Part shown: in pieces, positions 25,388 through 43,613 of the stretch
How positions within the stretch are numbered: position 1 is the first letter of the stretch
Layout of the letters: every line of letters begins with the position of its first letter
Position numbers and translations under genes: made by a program
Assembly: GCA_016934295.1 (NCBI GenBank)
Contig: JAFGTD010000101.1
Span: forward strand, 12,334-76,333
Direction: 5' to 3'
DNA length: 64,000 nucleotides
DNA from: Acidobacteriota bacterium
Lineage (GTDB): Bacteria; Acidobacteriota; UBA6911
Notes under the pieces: model-generated
The model's database searches: none
Told to the model about the DNA's origin: nothing
Seen by the model: only the letters and a program-made list of their open reading frames with translations

Positions 25388-26428
25388 TCAATTAATTATC
25401 AATCCCCAGGTTCCGGGATCGTCTTTCATGACAACAGCTTTGCCCCTCAATGGCACACAATCGGGCAGTTTCCCACGCAGACCGGCTTCCAGTATCAGTT
25501 CGGCCGGGTTTATCCGGGAAACCTGACGGAGACCGATATAGGAAGTTGTCAGCCTGGGATTGATCTCGACCAGTCGAACGGCATCATCGGTCAGGATCAG
25601 ATCCACTCCCGCATATCCATTGAGACCGGGAATCAATCCAACCGCTTCGCAGGCCAGATCCATGACATTTCGAATTCTCTCATGGATGAAAGGCACCTCG
25701 CAGCCCCGATAACAAAACGGCATGCCGGGCTGAATCAACTGCCGGTTCAGACTCAACGGCAGGCAGCGGTCTCCCGCAACAAGCAAAGAAACACTCACAT
25801 GGAGTCCGTCCAGGAACGGTTGGATCGAAATGCGATCGCGGGACGTGACAGGGCGTATTCTTTCCAAAGCCCCGAAAATATCAGTCCGATTGCCGACAAG
25901 ACAAACGCCCTCACTTCCAAAACCATCGAGAGGTTTGAGAACCAGCGGGAATCCTTTCGCCTCCGCCATTTGTTCCGCACTATCGAATCCTGCAATGCAG
26001 GTTTCAACAGTCGGCAGGCCGGCATCGCGAAAGATCCTGTCGCAGGCTTCTTTATCACCGGCAACGGCGGTTGCCGAAGCACAGGATCCCAACAAAGGAA
26101 TCCCGGCATTCTCGACCTGCAAGGAAAGCCTTGATAAAATACCGTCGGTTTCCGGTGCAACCACCAATGCAGCGTCACAGCGGCTTAATAGAGAGAGGAA
26201 GATTGCATCATGTCCGCCTGGAGATGCACACACCACTTCACCCGCGGGAAGCGTATTCCGGTTCAGTCCCGGGATGCAGTCCTCGAACCGGGGATCCAGG
26301 ACGGTGACGGTACGCACGCCATCCCACTTATTGAAATCGGCCAGAAGCGCCCACAGGATGCCCAGAGCCTCCGCCGCAAGACCGCCCGGCAGTTCCCCGC
26401 CGGGGGAGCCTCCCCCGGAAAAATATTC
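25388..26428 (-). CDS. ATP-grasp ligase of the H4MPT/methanofuran-linked group (MfnD / tyramine-glutamate-ligase-like)
   Basis: ATP-grasp fold motifs (VLKPLDGFGSEGV, LVEINPR). Placed at the internal ATG (MSVPSNIFVYEYFSGGG); the ORF-track TTG start at 26491 would overlap the divergent hisA-like gene. Confidence 0.55.
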   Translation of the reverse strand, partial: EYFSGGGSPGGELPGGLAAEALGILWALLADFNKWDGVRTVTVLDPRFEDCIPGLNRNTLPAGEVVCASPGGHDAIFLSLLSRCDAALVVAPETDGILSRLSLQVENAGIPLLGSCASATAVAGDKEACDRIFRDAGLPTVETCIAGFDSAEQMAEAKGFPLVLKPLDGFGSEGVCLVGNRTDIFGALERIRPVTSRDRISIQPFLDGLHVSVSLLVAGDRCLPLSLNRQLIQPGMPFCYRGCEVPFIHERIRNVMDLACEAVGLIPGLNGYAGVDLILTDDAVRLVEINPRLTTSYIGLRQVSRINPAELILEAGLRGKLPDCVPLRGKAVVMKDDPGTWGLIIN

Positions 26429-26457
26429 ATACACAAATATATTGGACGGCACAGACA

Positions 26458-27197
26458 TGCGATTAATCCCTGTTATAGATTTATTGAACAACCAGGCGGT
26501 CCATGCTGTTAAAGGCGAGCGGAAACATTATAAACCGTTAAAGAGCGTCTTGTGCAGTTCATCCGATCCCCTGGAGATTGCCCGAGCGTTTCGCGATCGC
26601 CTGGGATTGAATGAAATCTACATCGCCGACCTGGACGCCATCCAGAATTCAAACCCGACAAAACACCGGGAATTGATTGTATACCTCTCTTCCAGTGAAA
26701 AAATCCGCATTCTCCTGGATGCCGGAATTTCGGATGCCGCGCAGGCCCGGATCCGGCTCGACACAGGCATCCATAAAGTGATTATTGGAGCAGAAACCCT
26801 TAAAAGCCGGGATGCCCTGAAAGGACTCCCCTGCGACATCGATCCTGCCCGCCTGATATTCAGCCTCGATTGCCGCAATGGAAAAATTCTTTCAAGGTGC
26901 TCCGACCTGGTGAAACTGGCCCCGATGAAAGCTCTGGAATGCCTGCAATCCTCGGGCTGGCGGGAGATAATTTTGCTGGATCTTGCGCGAGTGGGAAGCG
27001 GCCGTGGTATAGACCGCTCATTGATTATTCAGGCACGGGCAAATTTTCCCGAGCTGACACTTCTTGCCGGTGGGGGAATCACCGGTCCACATGAAGCAAA
27101 CGAACTGAACTCCATGGGTATTGAAGGTGCACTCTTGGCAACCGCTCTCCATAATGGCAGCATCGGCCCGCAACACATCCCCGAGTTAAAAACATAA
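26458..27197 (+). CDS. HisA/HisF-like (beta/alpha)8-barrel protein of the H4MPT-linked C1 gene set
   Basis: 246 aa. MRLIPVIDLLNNQAVHAVKG N-terminus and C-terminal GGGI phosphate-binding motif, typical of the HisA/HisF family. Confidence 0.7.
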
Positions 27198-27202
27198 CGC
27201 GA

Positions 27203-27300
27203 AGACGCAAGACCTCAAAGACGCAGAGAAAAATAAATTATTTGATGCAATTTATTTTGGACTCTGCGTTCTCTGCGTCTCTGCGGTGAATTTTTTTATC
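27203..27300. terminator. large imperfect hairpin between convergent hisA-like and fae genes, built from AAGACGCA / CTCTGCGT tandem octamers around an AT-rich palindromic loop, followed by T7
   Basis: GAAGACGCAAGACCTCAAAGACGCAGAG ... CTCTGCGTTCTCTGCGTCTCTGCGG then TGAATTTTTTTATC. Confidence 0.6.
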
Positions 27301-27308
27301 GGCAATGC

Positions 27309-27821
27309 CTACTGATGCGCCGCGAAAGGATGGGCCGCTTCGCCTTTCTTTGCAACAACTTCAGCGGCTTTCGGTTCGCCTGCTACGGCACGCTTTATGG
27401 CAAGCTTGGTCGCTTCGTAATTGAAATCCTGAATCTTGGTGTCGTCCTTGGCTTCCCAATGGATGAAAACACCGACGAGGATATATACATCATCAGCTTC
27501 TCCGGCCGGAATCGTGCCGTCTTCGACACAATCGGCAACGGCCATGCCAACGGCGCGTTGAGCCGGGCCGAACATCTGGACCGCCTGGGTGGCGTTCTTG
27601 ATGGTGACCTTATTGAACATTACCGTGGAAGGTTTGCACGGCAGGTTCGGAGCGACAACAGCCAGCAGGGAAGTAAATCCGTCTTTGTTATTGGCAAGTG
27701 TATTGCAGAAAGCAGCCTCGGCGGCGCTCCCCCGTGGGCCCAGTATCAGATCGATATGGGCGATTTCGTTTCCGTCTCCAACCAGTGCTTCTCCAACCAT
27801 AACTCGATCAATCTTTGCCAT
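27309..27821 (-). CDS. fae: formaldehyde-activating enzyme (5,6,7,8-tetrahydromethanopterin hydro-lyase)
   Basis: 170 aa, near-collinear with Fae of methylotrophs ([61 protein letters not shown]...[10 protein letters not shown]...[13 protein letters not shown]...NYEATKL.I.RAV.GEPKA...HPFAA). Confidence 0.9.
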
Positions 27822-27974: not shown

Positions 27975-29129
27975 CTAGAAGAAGCGAAGATACCCGCTTG
28001 CCTTCTTCAGGCGGAGGGAAGGCCTTCCGAGGGCGTCGATGCTCCAGATTCTGCCTGTTTTTCTCTGTTCGAGAATCCGGTTTACGGTTATCTCACCCAG
28101 GCCGGGAACACGCAGAAGCTGGTATTTGGGGGCTTTATTTATATCAAGGGGGAAATATTCGGGATGAAGCATTGCCCAGTGCTCTTTGGGATCGATATCG
28201 AGCGAAAGATTTCCCGTCCTGTCAAAACAGATATCCGATTCGGTGAATCCGTATTTGCGCATCAGGAAATCAACCTGGTACAGGCGATGCTCTCGCATAA
28301 ACACATCGCCCGGATTCTGCCCCTTATATTCATCCATAGCGGTATGCCCTAAATCCTTCTGGTAAGCGCTGAAGTAAATCCTTTTGAGATGGAGCCGGTC
28401 GTACAGTCCCCACATATAACGAACAATTTCCGAATCCGTCTCCTCCGCCGCGCCGACGACAAACTGGGTGGTCTGTTTGACCCTTTCGTATTTGTTGCCC
28501 CGGCCGGTCAGCCGGCTTATCAGTTTGATAGGTTCGGCAATATCCTCGATGAACCGCTTGCGGGATGACAGCTTGGCCAGATGCCCGGCACCGGGAGTTT
28601 CGATATTCAGGGAGACTGCCGTCGACAGGGAAACGGCCTCTTCAATGGCTGCGGCGCTTGCACCGGGTATGATCTTCAGATGAATGTATCCCCTGAAATC
28701 GCGTTTGCAGCGAAGAATTCGCGCTATACGGTTCAGTCGCTCCATTGTCGCATCGGGTGTGCCGAGTACGCCGGAAGTAAGAAACAGTCCGAAAACTTCC
28801 CGGCGGTTGAAATAATCCAGGAAGGCATTGACGGTTTCCTCCTCGCTTAGCGTGCATCGGCGAACATCCTGGTCGGCCCTCAGCGGGCAGTATCTGCAGT
28901 CGCTGGAACATACATTGGAAATGAGGGTTTTAAAGAGAACGCTCGTTCCTCCATTAGGCAGGGTTACGGGATAAATCCATTTATCCTGCTTGCCTCGCCT
29001 TCGGTGGCCGCCCTCATTAGTGCCGCACGCGCAGGCCAGATCGTACTGGGCGTCTGCACTGAGTATTTCAAGTTTCTGCTGCGTATCCGGCTTGCTGATT
29101 ATGGCGGTCATTAATATCCCGGGAGTCAA
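27975..29129 (-). CDS. radical SAM protein with C-terminal helix-hairpin-helix (resembles the putative DNA modification/repair radical-SAM family)
   Basis: CSSDCRYC (Cx3Cx2C) motif. C-terminal LLRVPGLGEITVNRILEQRK HhH-like segment. 384 aa. Confidence 0.6.
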   Translation of the reverse strand: MTPGILMTAIISKPDTQQKLEILSADAQYDLACACGTNEGGHRRRGKQDKWIYPVTLPNGGTSVLFKTLISNVCSSDCRYCPLRADQDVRRCTLSEEETVNAFLDYFNRREVFGLFLTSGVLGTPDATMERLNRIARILRCKRDFRGYIHLKIIPGASAAAIEEAVSLSTAVSLNIETPGAGHLAKLSSRKRFIEDIAEPIKLISRLTGRGNKYERVKQTTQFVVGAAEETDSEIVRYMWGLYDRLHLKRIYFSAYQKDLGHTAMDEYKGQNPGDVFMREHRLYQVDFLMRKYGFTESDICFDRTGNLSLDIDPKEHWAMLHPEYFPLDINKAPKYQLLRVPGLGEITVNRILEQRKTGRIWSIDALGRPSLRLKKASGYLRFF

Positions 29130-29237: not shown

Positions 29238-30131
29238 TTATTCCAGTCCGGTTTCTTCTTCAAGCAATGCGAGGAAGATTGCGGCTGCGGTCAGGTCCGC
29301 GGTCGTGCCGGGATTCAACTTGTGGGCTTCGTCGCGCAAAGCACGATCCATTTCCTGAAGTTTCGCCCGGCCTTGAGGCGTAAAAACACCCCCCTGCAGA
29401 AGAACCTCCTGTGCCGAATTTGAAACCTGGCGGGAAACCTCCACACCGTTTTTTCTGGCAACCAGAGAGTCCGGCACTCGACCCAGGATTGTAAGAAATG
29501 CCTGGACAACAGCATCGGAGCAGGTCACTCCCCTAGCGAGGGCATCTTTCAGGGCCGGCAGCGCGGTACCAAAAGTGATCTCAAAGCCTGTAATATATTC
29601 CGATGCAATGGAATCCCGATCTTTCGCCAGATCCATTGCTTCCAGCAAAGTCATTGACGGCTCTTCGGAAACATCCTGCGCAGCGGCTCGGCCCAGGCCT
29701 CCGGGATTTGCCGCCCGGATAGCCTCATAAGCCAGCCTGGCGTCCTCAACCGTAAGCGCACCCAACACGTCGCCCAGGTCTTTTCGTATTTTCCCAATAT
29801 CCTCCATCGGTTTCCCGATATCGACCAGGCAGGCTTTTGCAAGCGGGGCCAGAAGCAGGATAATTCCGAGGTTGGTATTGTTCCCTACCAGCTTCCGACT
29901 GTCATTTACTGCATGCAGAATAGTCCGGCCTACACTTGAATGCCCGGATTTCTCGAATGCGGGACCGATCGCAACGGCGCTGAGCAGGAAATCCTCAAAG
30001 CAGGCGTCGGTAAAATCGTGATGCCTGCTCACATTGCCCGGTTTTGGGGCGCAAACCTCCCGGATGCAGGCTTCCTGAACCATTTGTGCGATCCGCTTTC
30101 CTTTATCCTCTTTCATGATACAATCAAACAC
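29238..30131 (-). CDS. triphosphoribosyl-dephospho-CoA synthase (CitG/MdcB)-like protein of the H4MPT/MFR cofactor-biosynthesis gene set
   Basis: 297 aa with CitG-family resemblance (PKPGNVSRHHDF...NTNLGIILL). Such homologues sit among H4MPT-linked genes in methylotrophs. Confidence 0.5.
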   Translation of the reverse strand: MFDCIMKEDKGKRIAQMVQEACIREVCAPKPGNVSRHHDFTDACFEDFLLSAVAIGPAFEKSGHSSVGRTILHAVNDSRKLVGNNTNLGIILLLAPLAKACLVDIGKPMEDIGKIRKDLGDVLGALTVEDARLAYEAIRAANPGGLGRAAAQDVSEEPSMTLLEAMDLAKDRDSIASEYITGFEITFGTALPALKDALARGVTCSDAVVQAFLTILGRVPDSLVARKNGVEVSRQVSNSAQEVLLQGGVFTPQGRAKLQEMDRALRDEAHKLNPGTTADLTAAAIFLALLEEETGLE

Positions 30132-30268: not shown

Positions 30269-30796
30269 ATGAATGATTTACGCTATCCCATCGGTACTTT
30301 ACAAAGGGAAGACAAAATCACCAGTGAGAAGCGGCATCAATATATCGATCAATTTGCAGAAACACCGTCAAAGCTCCTTGAGGCGGTAAGCGGCCTGTCC
30401 TCCTCTCAACTGGATACACCCTATCGCCCCGAAGGGTGGACGATCCGGCAGGTGGTCCATCACCTGGCAGACAGTCATCTCAATGCGTATGTCCGATTTA
30501 AACTGGCGCTTACCGAGGAAATCCCGACCGCCAAATCGTACGATCAGAAGAGCTGGTCTGAACTCGAGGATTCCCGCACTGCACCGGTCGAAGCTTCGCT
30601 TTCAGTATTTGAAGGATTGTATCAACGCTGGTCTATCCTGTTACGTTCCTTGAGCCCTGAAGGCTTCGCCAGAACATTACATCATCCGGATTGGGGCATC
30701 ATCAGTCTCGACAGTTATCTCGGTATGTGTGTGTGGCATGGGCTGCATCACATCGCCCATATCACGGAACTGCGGCAACGCATGCACTGGCAATAA
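30269..30796 (+). CDS. DinB_2 / YfiT-like metal-dependent hydrolase family protein
   Basis: Three-His motif positions (HHLADSHLNAY...WHGLHHIAHI). 175 aa. Own RBS GGGGGAA. Confidence 0.65.
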   Translation: MNDLRYPIGTLQREDKITSEKRHQYIDQFAETPSKLLEAVSGLSSSQLDTPYRPEGWTIRQVVHHLADSHLNAYVRFKLALTEEIPTAKSYDQKSWSELEDSRTAPVEASLSVFEGLYQRWSILLRSLSPEGFARTLHHPDWGIISLDSYLGMCVWHGLHHIAHITELRQRMHWQ

Positions 30797-30872: not shown

Positions 30873-31772
30873 TCATTTATCCCGTGTTTGCGCCTTCGCG
30901 TTAGTCTTTTCAAGGACGTGATCGACAATCCTACCTGGGATGTCTACATCAGTGATCTTCTGCAGGCCTCTCCATCCGGGAATGCTGTTAATCTCTATCA
31001 CATACGTCCTGCCGTCTTCCGACTGCATCAGGTCCACGCCCGCATAATTCAATCCTATCGTTCGAACGGCCTCCAACGCCAGCTCCTCCATACGCTGACC
31101 TAATTCAACCGGTGCCAATTCAGCTCCCTTGGAGTAGTTGGTCTTCCATCCTTTTCCATTCCGCTGCATTGCGGCAACAACTTCGTTTCCTATGACAAAC
31201 GCCCGAATGTCTTTTTGAAAATGCGGCAGATATTCCTGAATGTAAAAAATATACCGGTTCAGTTCCCAGGCCCGCAGCACCCGGTAGGCAGTCTCTTCAT
31301 CCGAGGTCCGGACAATCCCCTTCCCTTCGGAGCCGAAAAGGGGCTTGATCACGACATCTCCCATATCATTGCAGGCATTCAAAGCCGTCTCGAAATCCTC
31401 GGTTACCAGGGAACGGGGAGTCGGAATACCTGCGTCCGCAAGAAGAAAAGACGTGTAGTATTTGTCCACCGTTCGCTCTATCGCCGAACCGGAATTGACA
31501 ACAGGAATCCCCAGCTTTTCCAGGCGGTGCAGAACGTCCATGCGGAAAATTATCTGTTCAAGGGATCCTGTCGGAATGGTGCGCACCAGCAGAGCCCGGC
31601 AACCATCCAGGCGCTCTCCACGCACCTCGACACCGGGACTGTCGCCGATCCGTCCCGCCAGGCGGGTAATGTTAAAAAAAACCGGTTCGCAGTCCCTGCT
31701 GCGCACGGCCTCTTCAAGAGCCAGCGCGTGATAGCCCCTTTGGGAGGACAGGATTCCTATTCTTGCGGACAT
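30873..31772 (-). CDS. RimK-family ATP-grasp alpha-L-glutamate ligase (MptN-like, tetrahydromethanopterin:glutamate ligase family)
   Basis: 299 aa. RimK-type ATP-grasp (VIKPLFGSEGKGI, YVIEINSIPGW). Directly downstream of mch in the same operon. Confidence 0.6.
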   Translation of the reverse strand: MSARIGILSSQRGYHALALEEAVRSRDCEPVFFNITRLAGRIGDSPGVEVRGERLDGCRALLVRTIPTGSLEQIIFRMDVLHRLEKLGIPVVNSGSAIERTVDKYYTSFLLADAGIPTPRSLVTEDFETALNACNDMGDVVIKPLFGSEGKGIVRTSDEETAYRVLRAWELNRYIFYIQEYLPHFQKDIRAFVIGNEVVAAMQRNGKGWKTNYSKGAELAPVELGQRMEELALEAVRTIGLNYAGVDLMQSEDGRTYVIEINSIPGWRGLQKITDVDIPGRIVDHVLEKTNAKAQTRDK

Positions 31773-31775: not shown

Positions 31776-32747
31776 TCAGTCTTCCAGAAGTGAGCTTCTC
31801 AGAAGCGCGGGGTTGATACTCCCGGAGCGGAATGTGCGCCCCGAATTCATGTTACTGATTGCAACACGGGCGGGGCTGAAAAGCATGGGATCGATCTGGT
31901 AAAAGTCCCCGTTATAGCGCCGGAACAGTTCATAGAACGGCGTGCCGTAATCCCGGGATCCCGCGGAGGGAATCCTGTCGATCAGGAAAGCCAGTTCCTC
32001 ATCCTCCGCAGCAACCGCAAAGAAAGCCTGGCTTCCGTACAGGATGGCGTCGTTGGTTCTGCCGATTGCGTGCAGATCGTCCGCCGCAACAGGTGCCAGC
32101 GGGCAAACGCCGGAAGCCGCCTTAACTTTACGGACGTCAAATCCGAGCTCCGCCAGCTTGTGCATTCCGGTCTCGGCCGACCGTGCGGCGATTTGAATCG
32201 ATCCCACAAGGGATGCCGTCGGCGCAATCAGCAGACAGACATGATCCGGCTTGACCCCGCATTTTTCAGCAACAAAAGCGGCCAGGTCCTCATCCGGCAT
32301 CCGGCGCCCCTCCAGCATCAGAACAGCCGTATCGAACTGATCTTTATATTCCAGTTTCCGGAAGATTTCTTCATCCGCGAACAGCGCCCGCGCAGGGCCC
32401 GACCCCATGGCGAAAAACTGATCCTGTTTCACGGCCCAACCGGCATACTGCGAAGCCATGCAGGCGATATGGGGAGAACTGACGCTGACCTCCACCGTTG
32501 GAAGCCAGAACGAACCTCCGTCCGAATCCCGAAGGTGATAGCTTTTATCGCTGAAACCGACCTGCGCCAGCCCGCCCAGGCAGGCGCAGGAAAAGAGCCG
32601 GCCGGCCTCCAGGCTGCCGGAAACCTCAATCCCGGCATCCAAAACGTTAGCACCGTTTTTTAAACGTTTTACACTGATATCGAGCGCTTCACACTCTTGG
32701 ATCATCTGAACCACAATCGATGCAGCCCGTTGGTTAACGCTGATCAT
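31776..32747 (-). CDS. mch: methenyl-tetrahydromethanopterin cyclohydrolase
   Basis: 323 aa. N-terminus SVNQRAASIVVQMIQECEALDISVKRLKNGANVLDAGIEVSGSLEAGRLFSCACLGGLAQV matches the Mch family pattern. Confidence 0.8.
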   Translation of the reverse strand: MISVNQRAASIVVQMIQECEALDISVKRLKNGANVLDAGIEVSGSLEAGRLFSCACLGGLAQVGFSDKSYHLRDSDGGSFWLPTVEVSVSSPHIACMASQYAGWAVKQDQFFAMGSGPARALFADEEIFRKLEYKDQFDTAVLMLEGRRMPDEDLAAFVAEKCGVKPDHVCLLIAPTASLVGSIQIAARSAETGMHKLAELGFDVRKVKAASGVCPLAPVAADDLHAIGRTNDAILYGSQAFFAVAAEDEELAFLIDRIPSAGSRDYGTPFYELFRRYNGDFYQIDPMLFSPARVAISNMNSGRTFRSGSINPALLRSSLLED

Positions 32748-33543
32748 AAACCAGGATTTCTCCTTTCCCCAACCGGTTGAAATCCCCGCTGTAACGCCGG
32801 TAGCAGCCGGTTATGTATTCTTCGGAAATCGACAGACCCTGGAGGCGGAGATCCCGAAGGATGAGCTTCAGAAAACTCGGAGAATAACTGCAGTCATAGC
32901 AGAAAGTGGGCAGCAGTTCCGGTTGATTGAAAGTAACAAGGGTGCCGCGCAACAGTCCGGCACCCGCACGAATTCCCAGTTTCCCGAAAACCATAAGGGT
33001 ACCGGCTATCATAAAGGCTCCGGCGAAATCCCCCGCATTCCCTGCAACTACTATTAATCCCCGTCGCATTACGGCACCCGCTTCATTTCCGGCGTTGCCT
33101 TCGACGATAATCATACCCCGGTTCATACCCCGGCGGCTGCCCCGGTATGCGCCGCCCAGGCCGTGTCCCGCATTTCCATGTATATGGATTTTGCCGCCCT
33201 TCATTTCCGATCCGGCCCAGTCGCCGACATTGCCGTAGACATTGATTACACCCCCGCGCATTTCCGATCCAAGATGCATGCCTGCATCTCCGTGGACCGT
33301 GATCTTCCCCCGAGTCATTCCGGCGGCTATATTTTTTACGCGGCCAAGGTCGCCTTCCAGGACAATCTCCGTCGATCCGGCCCCGGCTACCTTAAAAAAA
33401 TCCCCCAGACAGGCGGCTTCATTGCCATAGGTAACCGGCATCCCGGCAACAGCCGCGACCGAATTGCCGGCAAACCGGTCCGGTACGATGACTCCCGCCT
33501 CCAGAGGTGCCTGCAGCTGCGATTTAAGCGTCAGTACGGTCAT
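32734..33543 (-). CDS. fwdC: formylmethanofuran dehydrogenase subunit C-like (FwdC/FhcC)
   Basis: Repeated Gly-rich beta-helix turns (GNAGHGLGGAYRGS, GNAGNEAGAVMRRG, GNAGDFAGAFMIAG) typical of FwdC/GltB-C-terminal-like proteins. Confidence 0.8.
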   Translation of the reverse strand: MTVLTLKSQLQAPLEAGVIVPDRFAGNSVAAVAGMPVTYGNEAACLGDFFKVAGAGSTEIVLEGDLGRVKNIAAGMTRGKITVHGDAGMHLGSEMRGGVINVYGNVGDWAGSEMKGGKIHIHGNAGHGLGGAYRGSRRGMNRGMIIVEGNAGNEAGAVMRRGLIVVAGNAGDFAGAFMIAGTLMVFGKLGIRAGAGLLRGTLVTFNQPELLPTFCYDCSYSPSFLKLILRDLRLQGLSISEEYITGCYRRYSGDFNRLGKGEILVYDQR

Positions 33544-34438: not shown

Positions 34439-34445
34439 AGGATTA

Positions 34446-36161: not shown

Positions 36162-37444
36162 GCCTTCAGCTCCTTCACCCCGGCCAGCAGACGGTCGAGC
36201 ACTTCTTCATCCGACGGATAGGACGAGTCCATCACCTTGCGCAAATGAATGGGGATGTTGTCCATGCGATATACCGTTCCTTCAGCGTGAATCCCCGCAG
36301 TAGAGGTCGTAAACGCGATCCGGGCGCTGCGCGTCGTTTCGCTGTCGTGCGTATCCAGGGAGACAAGAGGGATTTCCGCCAGCCGTCGAGCAGCTTTCCC
36401 CGGAAGGCTTGAAATCGGGTCCGCGGCAACGACCAGAGCCGCGTCTGCCTCCCCCCGGCTGAGCAGATCGACAACGGTGTATTCGCCCGGATTGAACCGC
36501 GGATATCCCAGGCTGAAATTAACCCCGAAAGGGTATCCGGTCTGCCAGGCAAGTACGTTGTCGATACCGGTGACGTTCCCGTGCCCGCGCATGGGAATCA
36601 GGGCAAATTTGACATGCCGATTGAGAGCGCGCACCAGCAGAAATACGGCCGAAGTATTGAAATGTTTGCCCCGTGTCTGTGTCAGCCCCTGCCCGACAAA
36701 TATAACGCCGAATTTACAGTGCATCATCCGGTCGGCCAATCCGGTCAATTGTTCATAGGTCAGGCCGGTATTCTCAATGGATATTTCATCCGGTTTTTGA
36801 CCGTTCGCCAGTGCCTGAAGAGCCCAAAGAACCTCAAAATCCTTGCCCGGCTTGATCTGCAGGAAGATGTCCGCGGCGCGCGCACTGGGCGTGCGTCTCA
36901 CGTCGATCAAAACAACCGTTCTTCCTTTTCGTCCGTCAGGTACAAACATGCCTTTAGGGGTCACGGCATAGCGCGCCATATGGCGTGGATGGGATTCTGC
37001 GGGATTGGATCCCCAATAGATAATAAGGTCGGCGCGGTTTTTCACCTCGCCCAGGGTGCAGGTCGGCTCCCCGACGCCCTGCAGCGCCATCCCGGAGGGA
37101 CCGTGACAGACCGACGTGCAGCAGTCGATACATCCCCCGAGAACTTCCGCCAGGGCGACCGCCTTCCGTTGCGCTTCACAGGAGGTGCTGCTTAATCCGT
37201 AGATAAGAGGGTACCGGGCATTCGCTAGACAACGGGCGGCCTCTTCAATCCCTCGATCCAGGCTGACCGGCTTCCCTTCGATCCTCGCAACCGGAAGATC
37301 CGAAGGGGTGCCATGACTTAAAAACCAGGACTTGCCCAGGACACATGCATTTTTTGCCTTTGTGATACGGTCGCCTTCTACAGTGACGCTGATGTCGTCG
37401 CAAACACAGCCGCAGAATGCACAAACCACATGATCGACTTGCAT
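36155..37444 (-). CDS. fwdB: formylmethanofuran dehydrogenase subunit B (molybdopterin-binding), retaining the active-site Cys
   Basis: N-terminal 4Fe-4S motif CAFCGCVC. TSVCHGPSG segment equivalent to the (Se)Cys-HGPS metal-ligand motif of formate-dehydrogenase-type enzymes. 429 aa. Confidence 0.8.
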   Translation of the reverse strand: MQVDHVVCAFCGCVCDDISVTVEGDRITKAKNACVLGKSWFLSHGTPSDLPVARIEGKPVSLDRGIEEAARCLANARYPLIYGLSSTSCEAQRKAVALAEVLGGCIDCCTSVCHGPSGMALQGVGEPTCTLGEVKNRADLIIYWGSNPAESHPRHMARYAVTPKGMFVPDGRKGRTVVLIDVRRTPSARAADIFLQIKPGKDFEVLWALQALANGQKPDEISIENTGLTYEQLTGLADRMMHCKFGVIFVGQGLTQTRGKHFNTSAVFLLVRALNRHVKFALIPMRGHGNVTGIDNVLAWQTGYPFGVNFSLGYPRFNPGEYTVVDLLSRGEADAALVVAADPISSLPGKAARRLAEIPLVSLDTHDSETTRSARIAFTTSTAGIHAEGTVYRMDNIPIHLRKVMDSSYPSDEEVLDRLLAGVKELKAC

Positions 37445-37445: not shown

Positions 37446-37497
37446 AAAAACCGTTTCCCGTTTCCCGTTCCCCGTTTCCCGTTGAATACAACGGGAA
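37446..37497. repeat. tandem heptamers (CCGTTTC x4.5) followed by hairpin CCCGTT-gaatac-AACGGG in the fwdD-fwdB spacer
   Basis: AAAAAACCGTTTCCCGTTTCCCGTTCCCCGTTTCCCGTTGAATACAACGGGAACC seen directly. Confidence 0.6.
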
Positions 37498-37498
37498 C

Positions 37499-37840
37499 CT
37501 AAAAGAGCAACGGTTTTATTTCGACCTCAAGGTGTTTGGAGTCCGGCATGCCGGACGCGTAGGTTTCGTCTCCAACCAGGCGGTTGCAGGCCGGTCCGAA
37601 GGGAATAAAAGCCAATCCTTCCGGCATATCGCCTTTAAAACATTTGACGGATGCTTCCCCGAATTCAGACTTCAAAACTACAGAATCCCCGTCGTGCAAT
37701 CCAAAATGCAGCATATCCGAAAGATTCATCTCAACCGCGTTCGTAGCCTCCTGATACTCCGGGCCTTCCTTGCCGGTGGATATTCCGGTTCCCTGCTTCG
37801 TGGATCGCCCTGAAATCAAAATTAGCCGAGTTTTATCCAT
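37499..37840 (-). CDS. fwdD: formylmethanofuran dehydrogenase subunit D-like (molybdopterin-dinucleotide-binding beta-barrel domain)
   Basis: 113 aa. Resembles the small MopB C-terminal-domain-type subunit (ISTGKEGPEY...EASVKCFKGDMPEGLAFIPFGPACN). Confidence 0.6.
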   Translation of the reverse strand: MDKTRLILISGRSTKQGTGISTGKEGPEYQEATNAVEMNLSDMLHFGLHDGDSVVLKSEFGEASVKCFKGDMPEGLAFIPFGPACNRLVGDETYASGMPDSKHLEVEIKPLLF

Positions 37841-38993
37841 AAATCTCTTCTTTGAGCTCTTCCGCGAAACGAATCAATTCCGCAAGGGTTTCCTCCCTGT
37901 CCGGCCGGTCTCGCAGAATCGTACATATCGGACCACCCCTGGGGATCGTTTCTCCGGATGCGGGAATATCCCGGATGCCCCTGCCCTTCCAGTTCCGGGT
38001 GTCCGGCACCGTCGCATCCTTCCCGGCAAAAAGGATGCTCTTCCCGAAACACTTCCCGGTATTTAATGCGCTTTCCAGCCTGAAATCCGGAAGTTCCCCA
38101 TGAAGCGCTGCTCTTACATGCAGATGGAAAATTGGAAGCCCGTAAGACTGTTCTATCAACTCCATGGAAGCCGAATAACGGGGATTCACCTCAAGCAGGT
38201 ATATTCGATCACCAGAGAGTATGAAGTCAATTCCATTCACACCCATTAATCCATATTCAGATGTCAGGAATGCGGCCAATCTCTTCAGCTGGTCCAGAAT
38301 TGCCTTTCCGGTATCAGGATCCATGACTTCCGGTAAAGGCAGAAGGTTACCGCAATAACGGAACCCTTGAGAGCCAAATTCCTTTATGCCGATCAACTGC
38401 TCGGTGATTCCGAGAACGACAGCTTCCTTGCCATTCGCTACAAAGGAGACGGAACACGGTCTGCCGGAAATATATTCCTGGAGCATTGAATCCGGAACGC
38501 CATGCATCCTCTCTCTTCCAGGCAATGATTCTGTCCAAAAAGAAATCCCATGTCCTCCCCCGCTCAGCAGCGGTTTCAGCAGCCAGCGGCATTGGGAATC
38601 AACCGGCCGTGTTTCATTGTTAAAGACCATTTTCGGCACGGGAAAACCCGCGCGTCCGAGCCTGTCGAACAGGTCGGACCAGCTGCGCACGGCAGCGACA
38701 ACCCGGGATGAATTTCCGATAATCCTGTGTCCTTCGCCGAATCGGGCAAGTATCCCGGGATAGTTTTCAATGTTGGATGTATAGGCAACGGCGTCAAAAT
38801 TCATCTTCCGGCTGGCTTTAAAGAGTGCCCCGGGGCTGTATCCGGTATGGAAATCGCGACGCAGGGAGTAGGATTCCGTTAATTCCTTCAGATCCCGGTC
38901 GCCGAAGGCATCCAGGGCAATCACGGCATATCCGCTGCGTACAGCGGATTCGGCCATTGCCCGCACGCTTATTCCTATGACAAGAACCTTCAT
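37833..38993 (-). CDS. ATP-grasp domain protein of the H4MPT-linked C1-transfer gene set
   Basis: 386 aa. ATP-grasp signature (IYLLEVNPRYSASMELIE). Overlaps fwdD by 8 nt, suggesting translational coupling. Confidence 0.55.
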   Translation of the reverse strand: MKVLVIGISVRAMAESAVRSGYAVIALDAFGDRDLKELTESYSLRRDFHTGYSPGALFKASRKMNFDAVAYTSNIENYPGILARFGEGHRIIGNSSRVVAAVRSWSDLFDRLGRAGFPVPKMVFNNETRPVDSQCRWLLKPLLSGGGHGISFWTESLPGRERMHGVPDSMLQEYISGRPCSVSFVANGKEAVVLGITEQLIGIKEFGSQGFRYCGNLLPLPEVMDPDTGKAILDQLKRLAAFLTSEYGLMGVNGIDFILSGDRIYLLEVNPRYSASMELIEQSYGLPIFHLHVRAALHGELPDFRLESALNTGKCFGKSILFAGKDATVPDTRNWKGRGIRDIPASGETIPRGGPICTILRDRPDREETLAELIRFAEELKEEIYG

Positions 38994-39030: not shown

Positions 39031-39945
39031 TTATATAATCTCTTTGGCGATGGCGTAGACGCTTTCGGTGTCCAGCACAAGATCGTTGTATTCAAACAAT
39101 TTGGCGATGCAGGCTTTATGCACTTTCATTTTGGGATTCCCGACGGCCAGCGCTCCCAATGCAAATTTGCCGTCATACCCGGCAAAATCATCCCCCGGCT
39201 TGACGCCCTCAATACCCAACGGCTCCACGAGATTAAAATCGATCAGCCATTTCAAACCGGGTCTGGCCGACCAGGAGGCCGACGGCAGCAGGCGCAATCC
39301 CGCAGGTCCGGCCGAAACCAGAATTTCGGTCTCATCCAGTAAATTTTCAAGCTCCGCGTCATCGGCGGGATCGCTCACCTGAATTGTTCCGCCGGAAGCG
39401 GCAGAGGGATTATGAGAGAATGTTTCCGCCGTCGCTCTTCCGCTTTTAAGCGTTTGTTGCGCCAGGTCTTTATTAAAACGGTCCCCCAGCAATCCGGGAA
39501 GAATGGACACAACCCGCACCCGGCATCCCTCTGCAGCCATTAAAACAGCGGCGCGCAAGCCTACAGGGCCCGGTCCCATCACCAGCGCACTCTTCCCTTG
39601 AAGATCCGTCTGCCGGGCCAGCTTGGCAATTGCCGTGGAGGCGGTGGTATTGCAGCCGTTGGAATCGAGCATGAGGGATATTTGAAACGGTCCGAAAAAT
39701 ACCCGGCGGGCTTCAGCCAGCATTTGTTCCCCCCTATCCACATCGGAACCGCCTATCCATACCGCAATGCTTTTCAGATCCGGTATGCCGCGGGTAAAGA
39801 TGGCTCCCTGGACCAAACCGCGTATGTCCGACGGCTTCACTCCTCCGTAACTCAGCACAACATCCGCGCCTGAATCCTGTGCAACAATACTATCGAAGGT
39901 ACTGGCGAATTTATCGCTGTCCAATTGAATAAGAATCTTTTTCAT
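39031..39945 (-). CDS. NAD(P)-dependent methylene-tetrahydromethanopterin dehydrogenase (MtdA/MtdB family)
   Basis: 304 aa. Strong family motifs RVFFGPFQISLMLDSNGCNTTA and HKACIAKLFEYNDLVLDTESVYAIAKE. Confidence 0.85.
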   Translation of the reverse strand: MKKILIQLDSDKFASTFDSIVAQDSGADVVLSYGGVKPSDIRGLVQGAIFTRGIPDLKSIAVWIGGSDVDRGEQMLAEARRVFFGPFQISLMLDSNGCNTTASTAIAKLARQTDLQGKSALVMGPGPVGLRAAVLMAAEGCRVRVVSILPGLLGDRFNKDLAQQTLKSGRATAETFSHNPSAASGGTIQVSDPADDAELENLLDETEILVSAGPAGLRLLPSASWSARPGLKWLIDFNLVEPLGIEGVKPGDDFAGYDGKFALGALAVGNPKMKVHKACIAKLFEYNDLVLDTESVYAIAKEII

Positions 39946-39977: not shown

Positions 39978-40036
39978 AAGGTTAATTCCGTTCAGCGTTT
40001 CCCGTTTCCCGTTTCCCGTTCAGGGTTCAGGGTTAT
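39978..40036. repeat. tandem heptamers (CGTTTCC x3 then CGTTCAGG GTTCAGG) in the mptG-like / mtd spacer
   Basis: AAGGTTAATTCCGTTCAGCGTTTCCCGTTTCCCGTTTCCCGTTCAGGGTTCAGGGTT seen directly. Confidence 0.6.
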
Positions 40037-40103
40037 AAAAACCCACACGACCTGAACTAGCCCGCAATAATCTCAATGAATTAAAATTTTGGAAATAAGT
40101 CTA

Positions 40104-41141
40104 TTACCGGAATTCGATTATTCGGGCGCCGCGGTTCTGGGGCCGGACCAGGAATGATTCGCCTCCACCGAGGCTGTCGAGATAAGCCTGCGTTTGATCG
40201 AGTAGCTTTTGCGCTTCAGCCTTTCCCTGGATCAGGCCATAGACGGTCGGCCCCCAGGAGCTCTGCCCGATGCCGGCGGCTCCGCGACCCATCATAAATT
40301 CCACAATCTTTTCCGAAACGGGATTGGCGAAACGACCTCCCTGGACGGAGGCAAAACAGTCCCCGACCATGCACTGGATACCGGTCAAGGCACAACCGAA
40401 ATTTTCTATATCCTTTTCCACCAGGGCCGGCAGCATCCGGATCAACAGCTCCCGGCTTATTTTCTCCACCAGGCCGGACGGCGCCCGGGGCAGTTTTATG
40501 AAGGCATTGTCCTCCTTCTTACCGTTCAATCCCTTTTGGGTTTTAGGAATAACTGTTACAAAGATCCAGTCCCTGGGCACTGCATGGTGAAACAGAACAG
40601 GGGGAACATGGTTTTTCTCCACCGCCCGGGCCGAACCATTCTTAAATCCGGCTTCGCTCGAGCCGAATCTTCGATTCGGCCGGGCTGCGCCGGAAAGATC
40701 CGTGAGAACACGATGACCGCCATCCAGGACAAATCCGCCATGTTGGAAAGTGGAAATGCCGATCCCGGAATGCACGCCCCTTCCCACCGCCAATGCAATT
40801 TCCTGAATACTGAGTCTGCGACCGGACAGCCGCGCCAGCGCCGCGCCGACGGCCAGAGCCAGCTGGGTTCCGGAACCCAATCCGACATGCGCCTGGATAT
40901 GGCTTATCAGATTCAGATGCGCCCCTGAGGGGAAGCCGTAACGCCGCATGAACCGCCGTGCATAGGTTGCAACCCGCCGTCGCTCCAGTCCCTCAACCTG
41001 CAGTGTCTTCGCCGTCCGCGCCCGCAGAACGAGTTTCGGCCGATCCACCGCCAATCCCACACTTCCGTACAAGCGTCCCAGTCCGCCGTTATTGTCCAGC
41101 AAACCCAGATGCAAACGCGCACAGGTTCGTACTTCAATCAT
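40104..41141 (-). CDS. GHMP-kinase-fold protein resembling beta-ribofuranosylaminobenzene 5'-phosphate synthase (MptG-like, methanopterin biosynthesis)
   Basis: 345 aa. N-terminus CARLHLGLLDNNGGLGRLYGSVGLAV like beta-RFAP synthases. GHMP motif region. Confidence 0.55.
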   Translation of the reverse strand: MIEVRTCARLHLGLLDNNGGLGRLYGSVGLAVDRPKLVLRARTAKTLQVEGLERRRVATYARRFMRRYGFPSGAHLNLISHIQAHVGLGSGTQLALAVGAALARLSGRRLSIQEIALAVGRGVHSGIGISTFQHGGFVLDGGHRVLTDLSGAARPNRRFGSSEAGFKNGSARAVEKNHVPPVLFHHAVPRDWIFVTVIPKTQKGLNGKKEDNAFIKLPRAPSGLVEKISRELLIRMLPALVEKDIENFGCALTGIQCMVGDCFASVQGGRFANPVSEKIVEFMMGRGAAGIGQSSWGPTVYGLIQGKAEAQKLLDQTQAYLDSLGGGESFLVRPQNRGARIIEFR

Positions 41142-41695
41142 TCCTTCCCCGCTTTCCGGATATAATCCCGAACCACTTGCAGCGCCTGTTTTTCCGTTGC
41201 CCCGCCTGTCTTCTCCACGATCTCCGCGAAACCAAATATCTTCTCATCTACGATTTTTCGATCGTAGAAAGCCAGCCGGGTCGCCAGGATAATCGCTTCA
41301 ATCACGGCACCTGCAGCCCGGCAGAAACCAGGAAAATCCTTCCGCTCTTCCGTGTGCACGACCCGGCACTTCACTTCCGCCCGGGCTTCGGAACCTTCAC
41401 TGAAAATCACCTCCAGTTCCCGCCACGCACATGTCCCTTCAAAAACAATCCCCGGAATCTTCCTTGCCGGGAAATTCGGCAGAATATCACCGTTCAAGGC
41501 ACATCGTGCATACGCCAGCACATCGTCGGCAATATTCGCCACACCATATCCGGTGGAAAGAAGATTTCGACACGTGTCGGTATTCCGAAACGGTCGCACG
41601 GTAACAATATCATCCGCCCACAAGACGCCCATCGGGGCGAAATTCGGCTTGCCACCTTCATCAATAGTTGAAAAGATCGTCTCAACAATCATCAA
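41138..41695 (-). CDS. DUF447-family protein (H4MPT-biosynthesis-associated)
   Basis: 185 aa. Family membership inferred from general resemblance and context only. Confidence 0.45.
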   Translation of the reverse strand: MMIVETIFSTIDEGGKPNFAPMGVLWADDIVTVRPFRNTDTCRNLLSTGYGVANIADDVLAYARCALNGDILPNFPARKIPGIVFEGTCAWRELEVIFSEGSEARAEVKCRVVHTEERKDFPGFCRAAGAVIEAIILATRLAFYDRKIVDEKIFGFAEIVEKTGGATEKQALQVVRDYIRKAGKE

Positions 41696-41716
41696 AGTAG
41701 TTAATATGCAAACAGA

Positions 41717-41790
41717 AAAAAACTCACCGCCGAGGCGCAGAGAACGCAGAGGATTTTAAAATAACTCTGTGTCTCTGAAGTGAGTTTTTA
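41717..41790 (-). terminator. long imperfect hairpin (AAAAAACTCAC...GTGAGTTTTT with inner CAGAG/CTCTG) between the DHPS-like and DUF447 genes
   Basis: Inverted repeat seen directly. On the minus strand the stem is followed by an A/T-rich tract. Confidence 0.35.
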
Positions 41791-43107
41791 TTCAGATAAA
41801 TACCCCCAACGCAAGTCCTCTTCCTGTTCATATTTTTTTCCGAGTTTCAGAGCCAGAGACGCTTTCTGCAGCTCCCGCCCCAGGTAAAAGGCCTCTGCGG
41901 CATTCCTGATATTCAAGTGATTGAATATCGACTGAACATCGTTGTCTCTAATGAAAATCTTATTATTAAACACATAAACGGAATCACGGTCTATAAAGAT
42001 GCGATAGTTACGATCCCGCACTTTTTCCTGCATCCCGCGCAGCTCTTCTTCAGAGAATGCTTCAAAAGGAGGATCCTTGATTGTGATCAAGCCGTCATCG
42101 AGATGCTTGGGCAGTATCCTGTGATGACAGGCATAATGCATCAGCCGCCGGGCAACATCGAACTCCCGGACTGCGCCTCGGGCCCAGCTGATCACCTCGG
42201 TAGTCAACACATAATCTATTTCCAGTTCGGTTACAACTCCCGCCATCACCGCACTCATCCCCGTCGTATCCGCGTCCGTCAGTTCGGTGAGATTTCCCGA
42301 TCCCAGGAGCATTTCGGCCTTCGGATGATTCCTTCGGGTTGTAATAAATTCGCCGATCGATTCGGTAAAACCGAATCCGATCGGCCTTAAAACCGGGTCG
42401 ATGATATAGGGAACGCCCCAGGCTTCCAGTTGAGAGATATTGCGCTCCAGCGATTCCAGCCCCTGTTCGAAATCCGGGACAACCACGACCTTGCAGTGCA
42501 GACGCGGCACTACTTCCATATTCCTGGAATTGACACTGAGAAGGAAATCGACATGGGCTTCATCCGCCTTCAGGATATCTTCCTTGCTGAACGAATCCAC
42601 ACTGACCAGGTATCCATCGGATTTCAGAGCTTTCACCACCCTGTCGATGTTCGGGAATCCCCCTTCAACCGGGCAGCCCAGATCTATGACATCGGCGCCG
42701 TTGGCTCTGTAATAGGAAGCCCGCTCCATTATCGCCTCCATACCAAGCCGGTAGGCGTCGACGATCTCGGCGAAAATTCTAACTTTGTGGGCGCCGTATC
42801 CTTCCAGTGCACGGGCTTTCCCGAAGTAGCCGGGAATATCCTTCAGGCACCTGGGGCCGCAAATAACTTCAACTCCCAGTTTGTCCTCTATTATTCCGGG
42901 ATCCGCTGAACACAAACCCGGAATCATGACCTTATCGCAACCCATGGCGCTGGTCAGGTGCTTCGCGACAAACCGTGCATCCATTAATGCCGCGACCGAA
43001 ATGGGAAGAACGGCACACTCATATTTCAGGCCTCTACCCATCCCTTCCAGTGTCTTCTGGAGGAACGGACCGGCCAGTTTGCCGGTTACAAATAGGTAGC
43101 GAGACAT
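41788..43107 (-). CDS. dihydropteroate-synthase-like (pterin-binding) protein of the methanopterin biosynthesis type
   Basis: 439 aa. Pterin-binding TIM-barrel resemblance (GADVIDLGC ... ADEAHVDFLLSVNS). Overlaps the downstream flavoprotein gene. Confidence 0.55.
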   Translation of the reverse strand: MSRYLFVTGKLAGPFLQKTLEGMGRGLKYECAVLPISVAALMDARFVAKHLTSAMGCDKVMIPGLCSADPGIIEDKLGVEVICGPRCLKDIPGYFGKARALEGYGAHKVRIFAEIVDAYRLGMEAIMERASYYRANGADVIDLGCPVEGGFPNIDRVVKALKSDGYLVSVDSFSKEDILKADEAHVDFLLSVNSRNMEVVPRLHCKVVVVPDFEQGLESLERNISQLEAWGVPYIIDPVLRPIGFGFTESIGEFITTRRNHPKAEMLLGSGNLTELTDADTTGMSAVMAGVVTELEIDYVLTTEVISWARGAVREFDVARRLMHYACHHRILPKHLDDGLITIKDPPFEAFSEEELRGMQEKVRDRNYRIFIDRDSVYVFNNKIFIRDNDVQSIFNHLNIRNAAEAFYLGRELQKASLALKLGKKYEQEEDLRWGYLSE

Positions 43108-43613
43108 TTTGTCAATTCCTCCCGGCTCCCGACAACGTTCGTTCCCGCCAGCCTTCTGAGTTTTCCGGTATTCTCAAGATCAATCGGTCTCGGATACACT
43201 TTTAACGGTTCCCGGTGAGGTCCGAAGGACAACGTCTCGGGAGCCAGGTCGGTCGGGTACACAATGATCGGCACCCTGGATTTGCCGGCCTGAGCAAACA
43301 GGTTGGTCACAAGGGTGTCCGAGATGCCGTGCACGAATTTAGCGACTGAATTGGAGGTGGCGGGTGCTATTATTAATAGTTTGTACCTGCCGCCGTAAAA
43401 CCGCGCCGCCACCGGGGCGCTCTTCCCTTCATCCCGGCAAATCGACATGCCGGATGCCTGAAGGCGGGAGTATAAACCGTACATCTTCAGAACCTCTTCT
43501 GCCGCCCGGGACAGGAATAGATCGATCTTTTTCCGTTCCATAATCATGCCTATACATTCTTCCAAAGCATGCCCCGCGCCGGTAATCGCCCATGCGATTC
43601 TTTTTTTATCCAT
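43086..43613 (-). CDS. archaeal-flavoprotein-like FMN protein (DmrA/AfpA family, dihydromethanopterin reductase-like)
   Basis: 175 aa flavoprotein fold (WAITGAGHALEECIGMI ... LLIIAPATSNSVAKF). Confidence 0.55.
   Translation of the reverse strand: MDKKRIAWAITGAGHALEECIGMIMERKKIDLFLSRAAEEVLKMYGLYSRLQASGMSICRDEGKSAPVAARFYGGRYKLLIIAPATSNSVAKFVHGISDTLVTNLFAQAGKSRVPIIVYPTDLAPETLSFGPHREPLKVYPRPIDLENTGKLRRLAGTNVVGSREELTKCLATYL

Follow-up and report, generated by a model that had tools for sequence, protein, structure and literature searches.

A tetrahydromethanopterin-linked formaldehyde-oxidation locus with a likely Fwd-type terminal enzyme in a UBA6911-related Acidobacteriota bacterium

The stretch of DNA analysed here (the window) comprises 64,000 nucleotides of contig JAFGTD010000101.1 from an Acidobacteriota bacterium (assembly GCA_016934295.1, lineage UBA6911). 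Positions 25388 and 43613 are the exact end of the last and start of the first open reading frame (ORF) of a minus-strand gene train, 17 genes in all, that includes genes for one-carbon (C1) transfer on tetrahydromethanopterin (H4MPT) and methanofuran (MFR). This locus is likely an H4MPT/MFR-linked formaldehyde-oxidation module of UBA6911-related Acidobacteriota that carries most H4MPT genes and has a redox-active, Fwd-type end with the formyltransferase Ftr docked to it. Gene identities, residue conservation, synteny and host are established; catalytic activity, oxidative direction, Ftr docking and the electron acceptor are predicted from sequence.

Families were assigned by Pfam and NCBIfam profile hidden Markov model (HMM) scans of all ORFs in the window, with selected comparisons to Protein Data Bank (PDB) structures, and 80 related genome loci were kept as a comparison set. 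The initial annotation had placed H4MPT/methanofuran C1 gene families at the locus, and the profile searches bore this out, with seven families passing curated NCBIfam cut-offs (Fae, Mch, Ftr, FwdA, FwdB, FwdC and the beta-RFAP synthase family). Pfam cut-offs were passed by Mtd (Mpt_N), FwdD (Molydop_binding), CitG, DUF447_N/C, DUF6513, Flavoprotein, RimK, ATP-grasp_3 (twice) and His_biosynth. The bacterial locus thus described, with the whole route from formaldehyde through methylene-, methenyl- and formyl-H4MPT to formyl-MFR and with H4MPT-biosynthesis homologues besides, is indeed present. The genes of the route itself, in transcription order, are:

39031–39945, minus strand: NAD(P)-type methylene-H4MPT dehydrogenase, MtdA/B/C family (PF09176, 101 bits; Methylorubrum extorquens MtdA 1lu9, 205 bits)
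37499–37840, minus strand: FwdD, capping domain of the Mo/W-pterin site, 113 aa (PF01568, 46 bits; NF042908, 84 bits, below its cut-off of 175; FwdD structures 5t5i_D and 2ki8, 65–68 bits)
36155–37444, minus strand: FwdB, catalytic Mo/W-pterin subunit (TIGR03129, 528 bits, cut-off 328)
34530–36161, minus strand: FwdA amidohydrolase, formyl-MFR to and from formate plus MFR (TIGR03121, 768 bits, cut-off 393)
33524–34438, minus strand: Ftr/FhcD formyltransferase (TIGR03119, 428 bits, cut-off 293; archaeal Ftr, 321 bits, FhcD, 311 bits)
32734–33543, minus strand: FwdC/FhcC beta-helix scaffold (TIGR03122, 266 bits, cut-off 131)
31776–32747, minus strand: Mch, methenyl-H4MPT cyclohydrolase (PF02289, 413 bits; TIGR03120, 401 bits, cut-off 229)
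27309–27821, minus strand: Fae, formaldehyde-activating enzyme (PF08714, 235 bits; TIGR03126, 257 bits, cut-off 118)

The catalytic subunit of the terminal enzyme is of archaeal kind. FwdB scores 414 bits against archaeal FwdB structures (8rja_B, 5t5i_B) versus 46 bits against M. extorquens FhcB (6s6y_B), and is 46% identical to M. wolfeii FwdB. The ligands of its [4Fe-4S] cluster, C8, C11, C15 and C34, are kept and align with the M. wolfeii FwdB cysteines. Catalytic C113-H114 (SVCHGPS, 111–117) and R286 (PMRGH, 284–288) are kept as well, matching Cys118-His119 and Arg288 of M. wolfeii. All seven residues are present in 65 of the 80 related loci. In 11 of the 80 (10 Planctomycetota, 1 Vicinamibacterales) an in-frame TGA stands at the FwdB Cys codon and is followed by His; it is read as selenocysteine (Sec), a residue maintained at redox-active sites. 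The TGA lies at codon 111–113 in the context SL*HGP (loci L059–L061, L064, L066, L068, L070, L073, L076, L077 and L079), and the reading frame past it extends to ~441–465 codons in 10 of these 11 loci, with no downstream stop in the stretch read for L079. Sec-containing FwdB of Planctomycetes has been published previously (PMC4807772).

Within the Acidobacteriota, conservation of FwdB equals or exceeds that of FwdA and Ftr (79–90% identity) and is greater than that of FwdC (63–81%) and Mch; such strong conservation is not as expected for a mere scaffold. A FwdD homologue of 113 aa is encoded directly upstream of fwdB. FwdA follows the same trend, with 527–556 bits to archaeal FwdA versus 354 bits to FhcA, and its binuclear metal-ligand motifs (HxH, Lys, His, His, Asp-His) align with 8rja_A. 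According to Hemmann et al., FhcB has lost the FeS domain, Cys118 (replaced by Ser62), His119 and Arg288, and Fhc is without FwdD, which is needed to cap the pterin site (PMC6926001). Window FwdB and FwdD keep every feature whose loss marks FhcB in that study. From the retained FeS cysteines, Cys-His pair, Arg and FwdD, we infer oxidation of formyl-MFR to CO2, as in Fwd, over hydrolysis to formate. FwdBD is probably a working Mo/W-pterin formate/CO2 oxidoreductase, and the pathway probably ends in CO2, not free formate.

Gene order and the FwdC scaffold resemble Fhc. The ftr gene sits between fwdA and fwdC, matching the fhcBADC order of M. extorquens (Mext_1824–1827; PMC6926001), where a C-terminal helix-loop-helix of FhcC docks the formyltransferase (PMC6926001). 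It had been stated that the order differs from that of methylotroph fhc; this arose because gene names were compared and not the map, since FwdB-FwdA-Ftr-FwdC corresponds gene for gene to M. extorquens fhcB-A-D-C, and the two differ only by the extra fwdD. FwdC aligns with FhcC over its full length, residues 210–265 included (FhcC 208–262), and its alignments to most archaeal FwdC end near residue 214. The AlphaFold (AF2) model of FwdC (pLDDT 94.3, pTM 0.92) has helices at 223–234 and 241–245 that form a helix-loop-helix. Foldseek comparison of this model gave a TM-score of 0.91 at 1.9 Å with FhcC 6s6y_C, and 0.87 at 3.1 Å with M. wolfeii FwdC. The modeled C-terminus supports docking, though not as proof, and Ftr probably docks on this Fhc-type end of FwdC. 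The presence of three ATP-grasp/RimK ligases in the locus is compatible with a polyglutamylated methylofuran swinging arm, again short of proof. As a marker of an adjacent ftr gene the FwdC C-terminus was set aside, there being no correlation; the test does not discriminate.

The remainder of the pathway is accounted for by Fae, Mtd, Mch and Ftr, of which Fae, Mch and Ftr score above NCBIfam equivalog cut-offs and the NAD(P)-type Mtd above its Pfam cut-off. In the proposed sequence of reactions, Fae would join formaldehyde to H4MPT, the bacterial NAD(P)-type Mtd would convert methylene- to methenyl-H4MPT and Mch would open the latter to formyl-H4MPT. Ftr would then move the formyl group to a methanofuran-type cofactor, and FwdA would hydrolyse the resulting formyl-MFR. 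The formate would be converted to CO2 at the FwdB Mo/W-pterin site capped by FwdD, unlike in Methylorubrum Fhc, and electrons would exit via the FwdB [4Fe-4S] cluster to a partner encoded outside the locus. The formyltransferase/dehydrogenase complex would in this way unite archaeal Fwd chemistry with Fhc architecture. Cofactor would be supplied by MptG, the DHPS-like protein, DmrB, the MptN-like ligase, DUF447, the CitG-like and HisA-like proteins and two further ATP-grasp ligases. Fae, NAD(P)-type Mtd and this accessory gene set make up the classical bacterial methylotroph module. The label "archaeal-type", given to the pathway initially, is therefore imprecise: it fits FwdB, FwdD and FwdA, which alone are distinctly nearer archaeal proteins, and does not fit Mtd, which is of the bacterial NAD(P) type.

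Features held in common with Fhc could mean that the complex works as the formyltransferase/hydrolase of Methylorubrum, with free formate passing to a separate formate dehydrogenase (Fdh) and FwdB and FwdD serving a structural role only. The B-A-Ftr-C order equal to fhcBADC and the Fhc-like FwdC C-terminus are in keeping with this, as is the lack of an electron-transfer subunit encoded in the locus, and the pathway annotation of Yadav et al. ends in formate followed by Fdh (bioRxiv 10.1101/2021.04.09.439258). Yet the FeS domain, the Cys-His pair, the Arg and FwdD are all kept, some of the related bacterial loci have Sec variants, FwdB is strongly conserved, and its similarity to FhcB amounts to only 46 bits; we hold hydrolysis to free formate to be unlikely. 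A catalytically intact FwdBD is also the CO2-reducing enzyme of methanogens, and the pathway might run from CO2 through formyl-MFR to methylene-H4MPT as a Wood–Ljungdahl-like or assimilatory methyl branch in an anaerobe. The flanks contain genes typical of anaerobes (two genes for aldehyde:ferredoxin oxidoreductase, AFOR, besides FeS/CCG proteins and LarA), and the Wood–Ljungdahl pathway is encoded by non-soil UBA6911 genera (bioRxiv 10.1101/2021.04.09.439258). What makes the reductive direction quite unlikely is the rest of the gene content. The Pfam and NCBIfam scans of the window ORFs detected no F420-dependent Mtd, Hmd, Mer, Mtr or CODH/ACS, and the 21-kb homologous locus of the closed Acidobacteriota chromosome OY761556.1 is likewise without Mer, Mtr, F420-dependent Mtd and CODH/ACS. 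No low-potential electron-donating module is attached either. Fae and NAD(P)-type Mtd are, from what is established for methylotrophs, hallmarks of the oxidative bacterial pathway.

Several points weigh against formaldehyde oxidation with a redox-active, Fwd-type end and docked Ftr. Neither a FwdF/G polyferredoxin nor a CxxCxxCxxxCP ferredoxin motif was found in 25–48 kb, so the electron acceptor of FwdB appears not to be encoded locally, and the corresponding locus of the closed chromosome likewise showed no electron-transfer module (FwdF/G, Hdr, F420-reducing subunit). MfnA, B, C, E and F gave no match among the scanned window ORFs and could lie elsewhere in the genome. In the structural comparison of FwdC, the Foldseek E-value puts archaeal 5t5i_C first and only TM-score and root-mean-square deviation favour FhcC; moreover, every bacterial homologue has the Fhc-like C-terminus, whether ftr lies next to it or not. 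In UBA6911 genomes, Yadav et al. detected no enzymes that would feed the pathway by making formaldehyde from C1 substrates, and they regarded its role as unsettled (bioRxiv 10.1101/2021.04.09.439258). A 2024 review lists archaeal formylmethanofuran dehydrogenases and bacterial Fhc as the only structurally characterised enzymes (PMC11656701), and the literature yielded no activity, metal or cofactor data for a bacterial Fwd of the present type.

Beyond Fwd-type oxidation as such, we tentatively suggest, at somewhat less than even probability, that fwdD-B-A-ftr-C represents an uncharacterised class of enzyme, an Ftr-docked Mo/W formyltransferase/formyl-MFR dehydrogenase that would join Fwd redox chemistry to Fhc architecture, possibly with a tethered polyglutamylated methanofuran arm. 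If so, it would be a missing intermediate in the Fwd-to-Fhc scenario of Hemmann et al., and many non-methylotrophic or anaerobic bacteria would oxidise formaldehyde to CO2 without free formate.

The host of the locus is bacterial. Window FwdB is 100% identical to an NCBI entry, 'MAG: formylmethanofuran dehydrogenase subunit B [Acidobacteria bacterium]', encoded on a 77.6-kb contig, where MAG denotes a metagenome-assembled genome. Looked up by exact sequence, neither window FwdB nor its 100% identical cluster representative P0001 led to a contig, so the host assignment rests on the name borne by P0001 and on related genomes. Among GTDB species representatives the nearest, at 91% FwdB identity, is Acidobacteria bacterium UBA6911; other Acidobacteriota MAGs follow at 79–87%. 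OY761556.1, at 6.89 Mb, keeps the order, a few insertions apart, over the whole span between the DHPS-like gene and the last ATP-grasp gene, and synteny in other MAGs extends to both flanks, with the DHH gene on the upstream side and the AFOR gene on the downstream side. GC content is 0.47–0.57 throughout, without a step at the island borders, and no tRNA genes were found in the 64-kb window. Genes specific to Acidobacteria, TIGR03436 and CarboxypepD_reg, share the window with the cluster. Of the envelope genes named initially, the TIGR03436 VWA protein was recovered (58399–60804, 189 bits versus a cut-off of 81), the CarbD TonB receptor held as far as a CarboxypepD_reg N-terminus in a gene that runs off the left end of the window, and the SBBP lipoprotein could not be confirmed.

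Archaeal DNA that had been mis-binned, or joined to a bacterial contig in a chimeric assembly, would explain why FwdB, FwdD and FwdA are, among solved proteins, most similar to archaeal structures. This is extremely improbable given the cluster's occurrence in independent Acidobacteriota MAGs (FwdB identity 79–91%), OY761556.1 among them, the DHH- and AFOR-side flanks that recur with it, the TIGR03436 and CarboxypepD_reg genes on the same window, the lack of a GC step at the borders and the bacterial type of Mtd, DmrB and FwdC. Chimerism and archaeal contamination are effectively excluded, and the original attribution to a bacterial host holds, the gene order recurring in Acidobacteriota MAGs including the closed chromosome. 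Because there is no tRNA and no composition step, and because the cluster is conserved across many Acidobacteriota genomes, it is a conserved lineage trait without sign of a recently acquired mobile island. One slot varies within the lineage. In the closed chromosome and UBA6911 (L001/L011 7366–8223; L002 ~1715), the position of mtd holds an inverted gene 42–43% identical to window Mtd, and its neighbours are 58–90% identical; the low Mtd against the high neighbour identity suggests replacement by a paralogue, a different Mtd subtype.

The remaining genes of the locus, in the same order and with the plus-strand genes included, are:

43086–43613, minus strand: DmrB/AfpA-type flavoprotein, probable dihydromethanopterin reductase, opening the long unit (PF02441, 74 bits; TIGR02700/TIGR02699, 123/117 bits, below cut-off; PDB 3wis, 131 bits)
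41788–43107, minus strand: DHPS-like pterin-binding protein, MptH-like step of H4MPT synthesis (DUF6513 plus PterinBD-DUF4346; TIGR00284, 173 bits, below its cut-off of 257)
41138–41695, minus strand: DUF447 protein, accessory (PF04289 and PF20766 above cut-off; adjoins the beta-RFAP synthase gene in 12 loci)
40104–41141, minus strand: beta-RFAP synthase, MptG (TIGR00144, 204 bits, cut-off 114; NF040726, 227 bits, below its cut-off of 328)
37833–38993, minus strand: ATP-grasp ligase, candidate for the cofactor glutamate tail (PF02655, 97 bits; 8-nt overlap with fwdD)
30873–31772, minus strand: RimK-family glutamate ligase, MptN-like, closing the long unit (TIGR00768, 208 bits, above cut-off; NF040720 MptN, 294 bits, below its cut-off of 350)
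30269–30796, plus strand: DinB_2 family gene, interrupting the train (PF12867, 80 bits)
29238–30131, minus strand: CitG-like protein, accessory (PF01874, 268 bits; follows mptN in many loci)
27975–29129, minus strand: radical-SAM/HHH protein, putative DNA-repair type (TIGR03916, 290 bits, below its cut-off of 343)
26457–27197, plus strand: HisA/HisF-family protein (PF00977, 124 bits; TIGR00734, 126 bits, below cut-off)
25388–26491, minus strand: ATP-grasp ligase, distantly MfnD-like (PF02655 plus preATP-grasp_3; NF040722 MfnD, 109 bits, below its cut-off of 400)

This map revises the initial gene list in several places. The list ran roughly in ascending coordinates and placed fae first, which in transcription order lies near the end (27309–27821); it put the HisA-like gene on the minus strand when it is on the plus strand (26457–27197), and it omitted both the radical-SAM/HHH gene (27975–29129) and the plus-strand DinB_2 gene (30269–30796). 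The flavoprotein, listed as DmrA-like, matches DmrB instead (131 bits to B. xenovorans 3wis), DmrA being a homologue of dihydrofolate reductase. The start and stop codons had been described as a complete set of overlaps. Only 7 of the 16 minus-strand junctions overlap (by 4–22 nt, the 22 nt being that of the DHPS-like and flavoprotein genes), 7 have gaps of 3–158 nt, and the remaining 2 are wide, at 741 and 817 nt, with one plus-strand gene inside each (DinB-like, HisA-like). In place of the single translationally coupled operon once proposed there are at least three minus-strand units, split by these plus-strand genes: 13 genes from 43613 to 30873, the CitG-like, radical-SAM and fae genes from 30131 to 27309, and the last ATP-grasp gene. 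A consensus promoter and terminator scan of 25–44.3 kb gave counts at chance (18 versus 14.3 expected; 21 versus 22.9) and is silent on transcription units.

The interrupting genes are of different standing. The DinB_2 gene has the identical place in L003 and another place in the cluster in L001, and is probably unrelated to the pathway. The radical-SAM/HHH gene occurs in 1 of the 80 related loci (L003) and is probably an unrelated insertion; a role as H4MPT methylase was considered and is unsupported, its best match being TIGR03916, a putative DNA-repair radical-SAM family. The HisA-like gene is kept beside fae and the ATP-grasp gene in 10 loci. A palindrome, CATG (26456–26459), holds both the ATG of that ATP-grasp gene (minus strand, 26458) and the divergent ATG of the HisA-like gene (plus strand, 26457). 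The ATG at 26458 is the probable true start of the ATP-grasp gene given as 25388–26491; with CATG common to both starts, at least one of the two start assignments is uncertain. The other ATP-grasp gene directly precedes fwdD, and does so in loci of Acidobacteriota, Chloroflexota and Actinomycetota too.

Arrays of tandem heptads precede three genes of the long unit:

39986–40034, minus strand: 7 tandem heptads AACNNNN, upstream of mtd
37449–37483, minus strand: 5 heptads AACGGGR, ending 4 nt before the fwdB ATG
34445–34479, minus strand: 5 AACCYTG-like heptads, ending 6 nt before the ftr ATG

Fixed-phase arrays of the form (AACNNNN) x5–7 number exactly 3 in the window, where shuffling predicts 0.005, and all three are on the coding strand in the long unit's three largest same-strand gaps. 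The fwdB array recurs in matching position with 2–5 units in six related Acidobacteriota loci (L002, L005, L006, L007, L010 and L065), and L065 has 10 heptad units upstream of ftr as well. Specificity of the heptads to the H4MPT operon was rejected, as (AACGGGA)n also stands in more than 120 metagenome contigs from soil and sediment, all of them devoid of cluster genes; the arrays are a generic repeat. Whether such an array falls in a stretch free of stop codons carried no information in GC-rich DNA. Rfam at a relaxed E-value gave no match in 24–45 kb, and RNA folding of the three heptad-bearing junctions gave no significant structure (z-scores −1.6, +1.0 and −0.7).

Cofactor supply is represented mainly on the H4MPT side. 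Beta-RFAP synthase catalyses the first committed step of methanopterin synthesis, and DHPS-like, DmrB-like and MptN-like proteins are present but below equivalog cut-offs. The proposal that the locus also encodes cofactor biosynthesis stands for the H4MPT homologues; for methanofuran it comes down to distant MfnD-like ATP-grasp ligases, whose matches reach 109 and 37 bits versus a cut-off of 400. A 366-aa ORF outside the train (46969–48069, minus strand) is matched in neither PDB nor NCBIfam and shows nothing beyond a weak NTP_transf_2 domain. Its homologues (45–49% identity) adjoin the DHPS-like/DmrB-like gene in L001/L011 (Acidobacteriota) and in L015, L024 and L071 (Chloroflexota), and it may be an unrecognised cofactor-biosynthesis gene.

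The island is bracketed by two genes of the tungsten-type AFOR family (22704–24413 and 49007–51055, both minus strand), one with an adjacent poly-FeS protein, and the downstream AFOR gene also lies beside the cluster in L012 (84% identity). Another Mo-pterin oxidoreductase, PhsA/Fdh-like and with a Fer4_11 partner, is located at the left window end; coordinates 51052–51864 and 1005–3751 also belong to this set of AFOR and Mo-pterin observations. The AFOR and Mo-pterin genes indicate that the organism makes pterin cofactors. Other flank genes encode LarA, Ldh_2 and FAD/CCG proteins, and the flanks as a whole appear compatible with a pterin-making organism able to live anaerobically.

The system is already known, having been published for the UBA6911 lineage, and is no new kind of system; only the Fwd-versus-Fhc distinction and the hybrid architecture, both deduced here from the encoded proteins, had not been spelled out for Acidobacteriota. 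The locus is of value as a clean, complete example with an apparently intact dehydrogenase, not the usually assumed Fhc hydrolase, as last enzyme. If this is true, 'formaldehyde -> formate -> Fdh' reconstructions of such MAGs err in their final step, and two questions take concrete form, namely which acceptor a bacterial Fwd passes its electrons to and where formaldehyde comes from in organisms that oxidise neither methanol nor methylamine; both could be approached with a compact, expressible operon.

Methylotroph gene islands contain a similar accessory set (beta-RFAP synthase, DHPS-like, DUF447, CitG-like and HisA-like proteins and several ATP-grasp ligases). The module of M. extorquens, made up of fae, mtdB, mch and fhcBADC with mptG, dmrA and 'archaeal-like' ORFs, further shares the reaction sequence from formaldehyde to the formyl carrier, the NAD(P)-type Mtd, the B-A-Ftr-C order and the FhcC-type C-terminus. 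It differs in that the window keeps the FwdB FeS domain, Cys-His and Arg, together with FwdD, all lost in FhcB (PMC6926001), and in that the predicted product here is CO2, not formate. The reductase is DmrB-type here and DmrA there, and the host is an acidobacterium with flank genes of anaerobe type and without known genes for upstream C1 oxidation. Archaeal FwdABCD(FG) complexes (M. wolfeii 5t5i; Ca. Ethanoperedens 8rja) have in common with the window complex the FwdB residues, FwdD, the FwdA metal ligands and the FwdC beta-helix. Unlike them, the window has no FwdF/G or F420-reducing module, ftr lies inside the operon, the FwdC C-terminus is a helix-loop-helix in place of a beta-hairpin, and the enzymes coupled to the complex are Fae and NAD(P)-Mtd, not F420-Mtd, Mer and Mtr.

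Closer counterparts are found among bacteria. Ca. Hakubella (Actinomycetota) has fwdDBA-ftr-fwdC with the FeS domain and a residue matching Cys118 (PMC7325909), but lacks the H4MPT biosynthesis genes that adjoin the window operon. Planctomycetes and Ca. Methylomirabilis have fmdD-B-A-C with Sec or Cys (PMC4807772), the Planctomycete operons without an adjacent ftr. In the related locus set, the fwdD-B-A-(ftr)-C form also extends to Chloroflexota, Gammaproteobacteria, Gemmatimonadota and Bacillota. H4MPT/MF genes were reported from many bacterial phyla by Chistoserdova (PMC5020050), and Wells et al. counted 149 bacterial FwdB versus 94 FhcB and inferred transfer from Archaea (PMC10100899). Nearest to the present locus is the work of Yadav et al. 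(2021), who described tetrahydromethanopterin-linked formaldehyde oxidation in the genus UBA6911 (bioRxiv 10.1101/2021.04.09.439258). Their analysis of Group 18 Acidobacteria agrees with ours in lineage (UBA6911 FwdB, 91%; L004 is a Zodletone MAG) and in the pathway call. It was made at KEGG level, ends in formate and does not discuss Fwd versus Fhc, FwdD or the cofactor genes, whereas the locus described here retains the FwdB residues and FwdD and probably carries the pathway on to CO2.

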